Shown here: positions 48,991-58,780 of the stretch, piece after piece | Position numbering within the stretch: the stretch's first letter is position 1 | Layout: each line of letters opens with the position of its first letter | Origin: an uncultured Halobacteriales archaeon | GTDB lineage: Archaea > Thermoplasmatota > E2 > JACPAO01 > JAHFTW01 | Length of the DNA stretch: 64,000 nt | NCBI GenBank assembly: GCA_964643795.1 | Contig: CAZXUC010000010.1 | Coordinates: 13,748 to 77,747, forward strand | Direction: 5' to 3' | Made by a program: the position numbers and the translations under genes | Notes under the pieces: model-generated | What the model was told of the DNA's origin: nothing | Databases searched by the model: none | Seen by the model: only the letters and a program-made list of their open reading frames with translations

Positions 48991-49064
48991 TGGGGAAGAT
49001 GGGAGTTGAACCCACGACCTGGGCATTATGAGTGCCCCGCCCTAACCAGCTAGGCCACTTCCCC
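48991..49064 (-). tRNA. tRNA with CAT anticodon (elongator Met or Ile2; not initiator)
   Basis: GGGGAAG...GGGCA CT CAT AA TGCCC...GTGGG TTCAACT CCCAT CTTCCCC A. Confidence 0.93.
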
Positions 49065-49208
49065 GCGTTGACTTCGCGTAGCGATGTCAATGCGCCCGAG
49101 CGCAGCGAGGGGGACCCTGAGGCCGCGGTCACGCGGCCTTAGGGGCGGACGCGCCGCCCCGCAGGGCGGTGCGGCATCGGTGCGCGGGGCAAGGACGTCG
49201 TGCGCGAG

Positions 49209-49281
49209 TGGAGCGGAGGGGATTCGAACCCCTGGCCTCGTCCATGCCAAGGACGCGATCTTCCAACTGATCTACCGCCCC
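49209..49281 (-). tRNA. tRNA-Ala(GGC)
   Basis: Cloverleaf, anticodon GGC, G3-U70 pair, A73. Confidence 0.96.
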
Positions 49282-57589: not shown

Positions 57590-57680
57590 GACGGGTGCAT
57601 GGAAGCCCGTGACCTAAAAGGGTGGCGGCGGGGACCTTGCGTTTCAAATAGCGGGGCCTTGTCGCGCGAATCATCCTCCT

Positions 57681-57753
57681 GGGGTGATAACTCAGCTGGG
57701 AGAGTGCCAGACTGAAGATCTGGATGTCGCCGGTTCGATCCCGGCTCACCCCA
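57681..57753 (+). tRNA. tRNA-Phe(GAA)
   Basis: GGGGTGA...CCAGA CT GAA GA TCTGG...GCCGG TTCGATC CCGGC TCACCCC A. Confidence 0.96.
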
Positions 57754-57874
57754 CTGCCCGGCGCGCCGCGTTCCGCGGCCGCGCCGCAGTGTGGGGGGAG
57801 CCGGGATTGCCGAGCGGCGGCCTGGCTCGGCCAGCTGCCGCGACCGAAGGGTCGCGGGCCGCAGGCCCGTGACC

Positions 57875-57893
57875 TCGATTCCGGCTCACCCCA
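57875..57893 (+). repeat. Direct copy of the tRNA-Phe 3' end (18 of 19 nt)
   Basis: TCGATTCCGGCTCACCCCA versus TCGATCCCGGCTCACCCCA. Confidence 0.85.
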
Positions 57894-58780
57894 TGACAGC
57901 CCCGCCGCCTGCGACGGCAAATGGTCAAACCCGCGCACGGCTTGGCCACGTCGTGGAAGAACCGGTCCGGCGCACGCTTCTGCGCGACTTCTACGTCCCG
58001 CGGGCCGGCTACGCGCGCGTGGCCGCACTTGCCGACTGGGCGGGCGACCCCGAAATCGGGCGCTCGCTTGCGTACCGGTTCGGCAACCGCATCGTGCAAG
58101 CCAACAACGACATGCTCGGATCCCTCACTGGTCTGCCGGCGCAGTTCCGCGACAATTGGTCGATGCTATCCGACCCACGGCAACGCAACCTGCTTGCGCA
58201 CAGCCTCGTGGACGAGGCCCTCCTGACGCCGCGTCGTCGCAAGGCCGTCTTCAGCATGATGCTGTGGGGCAGTCTGTTCATCTGGATGATGGTCGGCCTC
58301 GTCGTCTTTGTCGTGAATCGAGAAGCCCTCGCCACTTACGAATCCGTGTATTCGCTCTTCTTCTATAGTCTCGCGACGAGCATCTTCCTGCCGACGCCTT
58401 TTGAGATTCTCCTAGGCAACGCCGTCGAGAACCTCGGCGTCGTGTGGACCGTGGCCATCGCTTCGCTGGCCAAGACGGCGGGTTCGTGGATTGTGTTGCT
58501 GATGGGCGACAAGGCCAACGAAGGCCTGTCCACGTTGCTCGAGAGGCGGCCCTTGCTGCGCCGAATGTTCAAAGCCCTGGAACGCTTCGCGCAACGCTTC
58601 GGCTACTTCGCCGTGTTCGTCCTCTTCGCCATTCCGTTAATGAGCGACACGGCGCCGCTGTTCATCCTGGCGGTCTTGAAGATGCGCAAGTCCGCGTTCC
58701 TTGCCGTGATGTGTCTCGCCATCATCGTGCGCAGCCTGCTCTACATCTACCTAGGCGACTTCTTCACGGGCTTGTTCTAA
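57893..58780 (+). CDS. Membrane protein with DedA/VTT-like C-terminal domain
   Basis: FLPTPFE, AKTAGS, RFGYFAVFVLFAIP, IIVRSL. Confidence 0.8.
   Translation: MTAPPPATANGQTRARLGHVVEEPVRRTLLRDFYVPRAGYARVAALADWAGDPEIGRSLAYRFGNRIVQANNDMLGSLTGLPAQFRDNWSMLSDPRQRNLLAHSLVDEALLTPRRRKAVFSMMLWGSLFIWMMVGLVVFVVNREALATYESVYSLFFYSLATSIFLPTPFEILLGNAVENLGVVWTVAIASLAKTAGSWIVLLMGDKANEGLSTLLERRPLLRRMFKALERFAQRFGYFAVFVLFAIPLMSDTAPLFILAVLKMRKSAFLAVMCLAIIVRSLLYIYLGDFFTGLF

Follow-up and report, generated by a model that had tools for sequence, protein, structure and literature searches.

A family of short modules behind tRNA genes of uncultured Thermoplasmatota that carry copies of the preceding gene's end

Behind the tRNA-Phe gene of an uncultured archaeon, the last bases of the tRNA occur twice more within about 140 nt, once inverted and once in the direct orientation, and the direct copy runs up to the start of a reading frame for a membrane protein of the DedA type. 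What is this arrangement, and whom does it serve: the tRNA, the membrane-protein gene or neither of them? The locus lies in a 64,000-nt stretch of DNA (the window) from a Thermoplasmatota MAG of 62 contigs, which is 87.8% complete. A first-pass annotation, made from the letters of this stretch, offered two answers: a two-state RNA switch that links tRNA processing to expression of the downstream gene, or a miniature tRNA-targeted element with att-like ends. Based on the comparison of this locus with other tRNA genes in the same genome and with the genomes of relatives, we report that the segment belongs to a family of non-coding modules of ~90-140 nt behind tRNA genes, which is previously undescribed (a literature search found no description of such modules), and that it is no switch made for the neighbouring membrane-protein gene.

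The tRNA-Phe locus

The gene whose end is copied, tRNA-Phe(GAA), lies at 57681-57753 (positions are those of the window, on the forward strand unless noted), has no encoded CCA and was identified both by ARAGORN and by Rfam (RF00005, 67.3 bits), its 3' boundary being given as 57753/4 by the two programs. Its promoter has a TATA-like box, TTTCAAATAG (57642-57651), about 30 nt 5' of the tRNA. The promoter block, ACCYTGCGTTTCAAATA, which starts here at 57634, is also found 5' of tRNA-Phe in the relatives, all of which have a TATA-like box ~30 nt upstream, and we take it to be an archaeal TATA/BRE. The box in these relatives, like the ABCE1 gene seen in one of them, is as expected of an archaeon.

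Downstream, the repeat search gives a direct repeat of 19 nt and 95% identity (57735-57753 / 57875-57893), running from T55 to the discriminator. The first copy, DR1, is the tRNA's own end from the T-loop to the discriminator, and the second, DR2, differs from it by one mismatch. DR1 is followed by a spacer with a GC hairpin (57754-57791; repeat search and predicted folds) and this by an inverted, antisense copy of the tRNA 3' end (57792-57807; repeat search, alignment with 13 other modules and consensus structure), the three together forming a long imperfect palindrome whose 28-nt arms (57738-57765 / 57780-57807) are 82% complementary. The antisense arm is common to two inverted pairs, given that it is also 88% complementary, over 16 nt, to 57878-57893. 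In this second pairing it is the 5' strand of a closing helix, P1, for which DR2 provides the 3' strand. Enclosed by P1 are a conserved junction (TGCCGAGCG...), the hairpin P2 (57809-57831) and a linker, which together occupy 57808-57849 (14-module alignment and fold), and then the hairpin P3 (57850-57874; 11 bp, loop GCA, from the fold of the trailer), which adjoins DR2. The region 57808-57849 is longer here than in most family members. Within the 121 nt between DR1 and DR2 there is no ORF of their own, no integrase and no cargo. At this locus and at eight other module loci, Rfam matched only RF00005, at the true tRNAs, and neither the Rfam tRNA model nor ARAGORN called a second tRNA-like structure at the module.

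What the first-pass annotation had read directly from the letters proved accurate throughout: the repeat search confirmed that 57792-57807 is complementary both to the tRNA 3' end and to its copy, the small hairpins that it listed are present in the sequence and in the predicted fold, and the last base of the copy (57893) is indeed the A of an ATG in frame with the VTT/DedA-domain membrane-protein ORF (57893-58780; ORF list, PF09335, E = 8.3e-13). In silico, the segment 57681-57900 has a minimum free energy of -143 kcal/mol (z = -7.1; none of 200 shuffles was as stable). The fold in which the tRNA 3' end is sequestered reaches -143.0 kcal/mol and that in which the cloverleaf is forced -134.5 kcal/mol, a gap of 8.5 kcal/mol between the two predicted states.

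Related modules in the genome and in its relatives

Of the 47 tRNAs of this genome, six (Gly-tcc, Phe, Lys-ctt, Val-gac, Ser-cga and Leu-cag) are followed within 500 nt by copies of their own last 16 nt (≤3 mismatches), in inverted and/or direct orientation, four of them at ≤1 mismatch. The linker sequences are homologous among the Phe, Leu, Val, Lys and Gly loci, and tRNA-Leu(cag) is followed by an array of three inverted and two direct copies. Searches with nhmmer and with a covariance model found matches in this genome only beside tRNAs and at one other place, the end of an acyl-CoA dehydrogenase gene (Pfam), where the module directly follows the stop codon. The module is present behind at least four to six of the 47 tRNAs, plus this one protein gene. 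A blastn search with the 141-nt element gave only weak matches in its own genome; the family emerged from the per-tRNA scans and the profiles.

At E ≤ 1e-3 the same model has matches in 14 of the family's 32 genomes, in 6 of 11 genera and with up to 10 copies per genome. Across the order, 13 of 38 genomes have a match at E ≤ 1e-4, and the six that lie outside the family have none. One of these six (G026) nevertheless has repeat arrays with a different interior. Of 17 new contexts examined, 15 have a tRNA no more than 330 nt upstream, on the same strand and with matching arms (Arg-tct, Arg-ccg, Leu-cag/gag, Lys-ctt, Val-gac, Gly-tcc, Ala-cgc/ggc, Gln-ttg and Pro-ggg), and modules occur behind at least 12 tRNA species overall. 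The closest homologue of the Phe module, in G004, has 76% identity.

Direct copies were seen behind tRNA-Phe in 6 of 19 relatives and behind tRNA-Leu at 14 of 28 loci, with a period of ~80-140 nt and always with the lineage's own acceptor sequence. This cognate character was compared with a control. The last 12 nt of the tRNA itself (≤1 mismatch) recur downstream as direct copies at 29 and as inverted copies at 7 of 114 distinct tRNA loci, a sample that is not random because loci were chosen for tRNA-Phe, tRNA-Leu or model matches, while 12-mers from non-cognate tRNAs gave means of 1.0 (direct) and 0.65 (inverted), with a maximum of 2 for each.

The architecture is shared. Every module lies between two copies of the last 19-30 nt of the preceding gene, a duplication that begins in the T-loop or in a T-loop-like motif, and every one has an antisense copy of that gene end and a conserved core. 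In the 14 aligned modules the parts follow each other in the order antisense acceptor and T-stem copy, junction GGATTYGCCGAGCG, small hairpin, CGCGAGGAAT, second hairpin, and TCGAAT with the direct copy.

Insertion, folding and the competing readings

Several loci can be compared with and without a module. Compared with G011, G005 and G008, G004 has a 108-nt insert with a 19-nt duplication, and the gene that follows can be aligned across the four genomes. Copy number ranges from 0 to 4 and differs between congeners, and units are found in tandem, some of them as near-identical copies. In relatives, the arrays are followed by housekeeping genes (ABCE1, CopCD, methylmalonyl-CoA mutase). The module behind the acyl-CoA dehydrogenase gene is bracketed by a ~30-nt duplication of the gene end with a T-loop-like motif. 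Among eight loci of the genus, this site is filled in two (G003 and the present genome, G000) and empty in six, and in each of the two the repeat as well as the antisense copy matches the gene end of the species in question. Additionally, the spacer motif between the first repeat and the antisense copy is conserved and reads one way at some loci and the opposite way at others, like a segment that has flipped between inverted repeats, and the antisense copy extends into trailer bases outside the tRNA. Judged from these aligned loci, the filled and empty sites, the tandem arrays and the two-orientation loop show insertion and rearrangement at the DNA level.

A tree of the core (55 columns, poorly resolved) is consistent with movement between genes, in that tRNA type is not clustered on it (17 changes vs 17.5 when shuffled), genome is weakly clustered (20 changes vs 25.0 when shuffled, minimum 21 in 300) and, within one genus, the modules of three different tRNAs form a group. 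The second proposal of the first-pass annotation, a miniature tRNA-targeted element with att-like ends, fits filled and empty sites, tandem arrays and the lack of cargo much better than a switch does. In the relatives the antisense segment is conserved, and the direct repeat does not mark a normal integrase island.

We prefer, at even chances, the reading that the ~140 nt behind tRNA-Phe are a copy of a cargo-less, target-copying insertion module moved by site-specific recombination. Such modules would be moved or laid down by recombination of the tyrosine-recombinase type with its crossover in the T-loop, which would regenerate the gene end in the manner of integrative elements. The substrate may be the folded single strand, and the arms would be kept matched to the neighbouring gene by copying, whether through gene conversion or template switching. 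It counts against this reading that ordinary integrase chemistry does not account for the matching of both arms to a new target.

Enzymes that could move the modules were looked for in the genome. Tyrosine recombinases gave 3-4 matches, two of them over the Pfam cut-off, and no recombinase was found beside any module. Tyrosine recombinase genes lie at C4:43578, C8:8073 and C8:32373. One candidate, a tyrosine recombinase on C8 beside tRNA-Arg(cct), was set aside, as it has only a possible 13-nt distal repeat and no adjoining module. Reverse transcriptase (RT), Cas1 and Y1 transposase were not found in this genome, which is 87.8% complete and so may yet encode them. Viral_Rep and Rep_1 had no match in it, but the controls matched nowhere either. 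Pattern scans of viral and metagenome contigs found no episomal or cargo-bearing parent. A 14-mer occurs in 119 stretches of the viral contigs, and none of the 80 inspected has a module context, these being chance matches in coding DNA, as are the three matches of the degenerate core pattern in viral contigs and the two of the degenerate core-type pattern in metagenome contigs. An origin from reverse-transcribed tRNA ends was dropped, with only 2 of 44 exact 9-nt copies being followed by CCA.

The main alternative to an insertion module, possible if doubtful, is that the segment is a structured RNA useful to the host at gene 3' ends, with the DNA duplications being only its origin. Read-through transcripts would fold into a mimic of the acceptor and T-stem with two hairpins, which would be cut by tRNA-processing enzymes or act as an element of 3'-end processing, stability or termination. 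Covariation in relatives, which had been suggested as a check, is indeed found, with compensatory changes maintaining a three-way junction. For the 14 modules, RNAalifold predicts this junction on the tRNA strand, its closing helix being formed by the antisense copy and the distal repeat, with double changes in 13 of 19 pairs. Run on the loci examined, the covariance model gave 48 matches (37 distinct), and in their alignment, which is fitted to the model, 95.7% of cells are paired vs 75.2% when shuffled (slid controls, at most 56.7%), double changes occur in 15 of 19 pairs and double-change cells number 116 vs 28.3 when shuffled, a value that none of 500 shuffles reached. Part of the covariation in the outer helix comes from its being a copy of the tRNA, whereas hairpin P3, which is not derived from the tRNA sequence, has compensatory changes in all five of its modelled pairs. 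On the tRNA strand, G.T mismatches exceed A.C by 49 to 12 (37 rows, two of them false matches), which points to one strand folding, with a possible contribution from a transcription-linked mutation bias. The compensation in P3 and the G.T excess together point to selection on one folded strand, which would suit a functional RNA no less than a folded DNA substrate.

Other details would suit an RNA. The discriminator base is the end of the closing helix, the conserved CCGA...CGAGG could by eye give tandem G.A pairs, and the dehydrogenase-gene modules of G000 and G003 keep their architecture at about the divergence of the gene itself. Set against it are the fitting of the alignment and the mutation bias just mentioned, the lack of any Rfam family match and the distribution, which even in a single genus is patchy (apart from G000, the module is present in 6 of 12 genomes of relatives) and variable in copy number. 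The module also stands behind a protein gene, where there is no evident need to mimic a tRNA; its antisense strand pairs with the discriminator and with trailer bases, like a copied palindrome and unlike a tRNA mimic; and a spacer conserved in either orientation is sensible for double-stranded DNA, not for RNA. Readings of the core as box C/D, H/ACA, K-turn or bulge-helix-bulge were unsupported by eye.

A bolder claim, which we hold to be rather unlikely, is that Thermoplasmatota have a new kind of target-copying element, whose helix is re-templated both ways from the gene behind which it has landed, or else a new class of gene-3'-end RNA. If true, an element of this kind would insert behind gene ends recognised through a T-loop-like motif, whether of tRNA or protein genes, and would represent an undescribed recombination or transposition mechanism with a folded, T-shaped single strand and a flip/flop loop.

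The preferred reading, an insertion module, can be set beside known systems. Integrative elements of tRNA genes insert within the gene, at the T-loop or the anticodon loop. The nearest published phenomenon is partial tRNA duplication by integrated elements of 9-23 kb, whose integration leaves partial tRNA copies that are sometimes later inverted (PMC9897764); as in the modules, a direct repeat from the tRNA loop to the 3' end regenerates the gene, and filled and empty sites, tandem arrays and subsequent inversions are found. Unlike those elements, the modules have no integrase or cargo and only ~70-120 nt between repeats, within them lie an antisense copy of the target and a folded core that is conserved, and one core serves many tRNAs and one protein gene.

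CIMEs and MITEs, which are non-autonomous derivatives of mobile elements, are short, non-coding and repeated, presumably moved in trans, and form genome-specific subfamilies. The modules resemble them in all these respects, movement in trans again being presumed. MITEs have ends that are identical in all copies and target duplications of 2-10 bp, whereas the terminal helix of the modules differs from site to site in keeping with the local target, and 19-30 nt are duplicated. Integron attC sites and the attP hairpin of CTX phage are folded single-strand recombination sites. Like these, the modules are imperfect palindromes of ~60-140 nt, with structure better conserved than sequence and a strand asymmetry, and they form arrays with a repeated core site per boundary and an inverted copy adjoining the junction; unlike them, they have no adjacent recombinase, no link to an integron integrase or Xer was seen, and their long stem (12-17 bp) reproduces the end of the neighbouring gene and surrounds two hairpins. 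Processing signals that resemble tRNA are minihelix substrates of RNase P or tRNase Z, e.g. in archaeal rRNA operons. The module helix likewise reproduces the acceptor and the 3' strand of the T-stem, ends at the discriminator and lies in a tRNA trailer. The 5' strand of the module, in contrast to such signals, is continuous, its T-loop is paired or altered (T54 replaced) and it also occurs behind a protein gene. Casposons, finally, have a Cas1-family integrase, terminal inverted repeats and a 14-15-bp duplication at the tRNA 3' end; no Cas1 match was obtained in the 87.8%-complete genome and the modules share no terminal repeats, so this candidate was rejected.

It is improbable that the modules are inert scars of ordinary integrase islands at tRNA genes, later deleted and with no shared origin or function. 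Such an origin would agree with tRNA 3' ends being the classical integration sites and with partial tRNA copies being common in archaea, as is known from published work (PMC9897764), with a 45-nt tRNA-Phe fragment found behind modules in G006, and with a single large island. In this last case, 29.5 kb separate a module of G007 from its cognate tRNA-Lys and the interval, the only large one bounded by a module, is a low-GC island bounded by the repeat, with ABC-3C, restriction-modification and transposase-like genes and no integrase recognisable with Pfam or PHROGs. By eye, the ORF adjoining the tRNA resembles a DDE transposase. A partial third repeat in G007 hints at insertion of the island ahead of an older module. 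Scars are disfavoured because the modules have a common core. A shared core of constant size with a covarying hairpin would not be expected of scars across at least 12 tRNA species and six genera, and neither would a cognate antisense copy.

The membrane-protein gene and the meaning of the modules

The gene order at tRNA-Phe differs between this genome and its relatives. In all nine relatives' loci that hold both genes, DedA lies 5' of tRNA-Phe on the opposite strand, and it is likewise divergent and upstream in six of eight named MAG loci (the other two have no tRNA in the available DNA, one being cut at the contig end; the nine-locus and eight-locus sets may share genomes). In G009, a small membrane gene that is upstream here sits downstream of tRNA-Phe, and in G002 a methylmalonyl-CoA mutase gene does. 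These orders indicate that the block of promoter, tRNA and module is inverted here relative to its neighbours. A perfect 10-nt inverted repeat, with no strand assigned, brackets tRNA and module (57624-57633 / 57900-57909, the right arm lying within the first codons of the long DedA frame) and could be the site of the inversion, though it is GC-only and may be due to chance. The Logan contigs of the likely source run, an independent assembly, are interrupted within tRNA-Phe (57697-57726) because several related organisms share that core. The gene order was seen on each Logan flank by itself, at similar depths (47.7 vs 44.1), and the join across the tRNA rests on this equal depth and on the MAG contig.

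The start of the DedA gene is affected by this history. Comparison of N-termini places the onset of DedA conservation near residue 20-30, and the relative L028 must start at a GTG equivalent to 57953. When the block is re-inverted on paper, an in-frame TGA precedes the DedA frame, by which GTG 57953 is suggested as the older start. The comparison suggests that GTG 57953 is an alternative and possibly ancestral start, and puts in question whether ATG 57893 is the true one. The distal repeat would touch the DedA/VTT gene only because the tRNA and module block was inverted, and any effect on that gene would be a by-product.

The first proposal of the first-pass annotation, in which the antisense segment forms a two-state RNA switch coupling tRNA-Phe maturation to DedA-like expression, thus stands in part: both pairings are predicted, and the antisense segment is a feature of the whole family, but the DedA coupling falls, as synteny is not conserved. 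The DedA-module link is local, because DedA is divergent in the relatives and the homologous G004 module precedes different genes. A switch is very improbable: the two predicted states, a tRNA-end copy that finishes at an in-frame ATG and a post-inversion gene that lies 3' of the tRNA promoter on the same strand, where read-through is possible, are outweighed by a gene order unique to this genome among those examined, by the same two-state geometry at other tRNAs and at the dehydrogenase gene, with downstream genes unrelated or convergent, and by a conserved DedA part that begins ~20-30 residues in, with GTG 57953, which would be preceded by an A/T-containing stretch of its own, as the possible true start.

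For the genomes of these organisms, the modules account for breaks between contigs and for spurious calls of partial tRNAs in MAGs of this kind, and they mark sites of local inversion, e.g. the one that put DedA behind tRNA-Phe here. If the reading as a target-copying insertion module holds, a structured module with copies of its host gene's end recurs in the tRNA trailers of a whole family of archaea, uncultured and living in soil and sediment. It would be a miniature, integrase-less addition to the mobile DNA that targets tRNA genes, and a natural case of a recombination site, or of an RNA, with a specificity helix that is rewritten from its target.

Surroundings of the tRNA genes in the window

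Compared with the gene order of relatives, the block formed by the promoter, tRNA-Phe and its module (the short non-coding unit behind the tRNA gene) is inverted in the window (region 57590-57910). On either side of this block lie the arms of a perfect 10-nt inverted repeat (57624-57633 and 57900-57909), and an 11-nt direct repeat, GCCCGTGACCT, is found at 57605-57615 and 57865-57875, corresponding to a part of the module hairpin P3 that is duplicated across tRNA-Phe, onto its far side. On the minus strand, tRNA-Ala(ggc) and tRNA-Met(cat) lie in tandem (region 48991-49281), with a CTCGCTGCGCTC-type family motif in their spacer; in the relative G011 (locus L220), the same pair is separated by a partial module.

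Trailers and islands in relatives

The trailer of tRNA-Gly-tcc in the relative G005 (contig C15, locus L218) contains, between two modules, a partial tRNA-Gly copy that extends from the D-arm to the 3' end and whose anticodon loop is split by an intron-like insert of ~57 nt. At tRNA-Lys(ttt) of another relative, we observed a low-GC island of 29.5 kb (G007:C19:17800-48200, loci L232 and L233), which carries ABC-3C genes (CTD7, DUF3732 and SMC-like), a C5 methylase with a MutH-like nuclease, RNase HII, an exonuclease and a DDE-transposase-like ORF, together with four ORFs of 433-457 aa for which a family match was absent.

Repeat arrays and a second unit type

Elsewhere in the window's own genome (G000), an array of three inverted and two direct copies follows tRNA-Leu(cag) (C22:23771-24220, locus L165), its later copies being closer to the acceptor of another tRNA-Leu than to that of the adjacent gene. 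Several contigs of this genome terminate within tRNA-Leu genes or their trailers (the starts of C19 and C24 and the ends of C35 and C18), with exact 18-nt overlaps at these termini, and the assembly breaks at tRNA-Leu seem to be due to repeat arrays.

A second unit type, found at three different tRNAs (loci L219 and L226, and the start of C24 in G000), has at its end 9-10 nt copied from the acceptor 3' strand, with a hairpin starting with CCAGGG immediately after them. A similar hairpin is located 3' of tRNA-Phe in relatives lacking the module. The junction between the acceptor copy and CCAGGG reads like an encoded CCA end.
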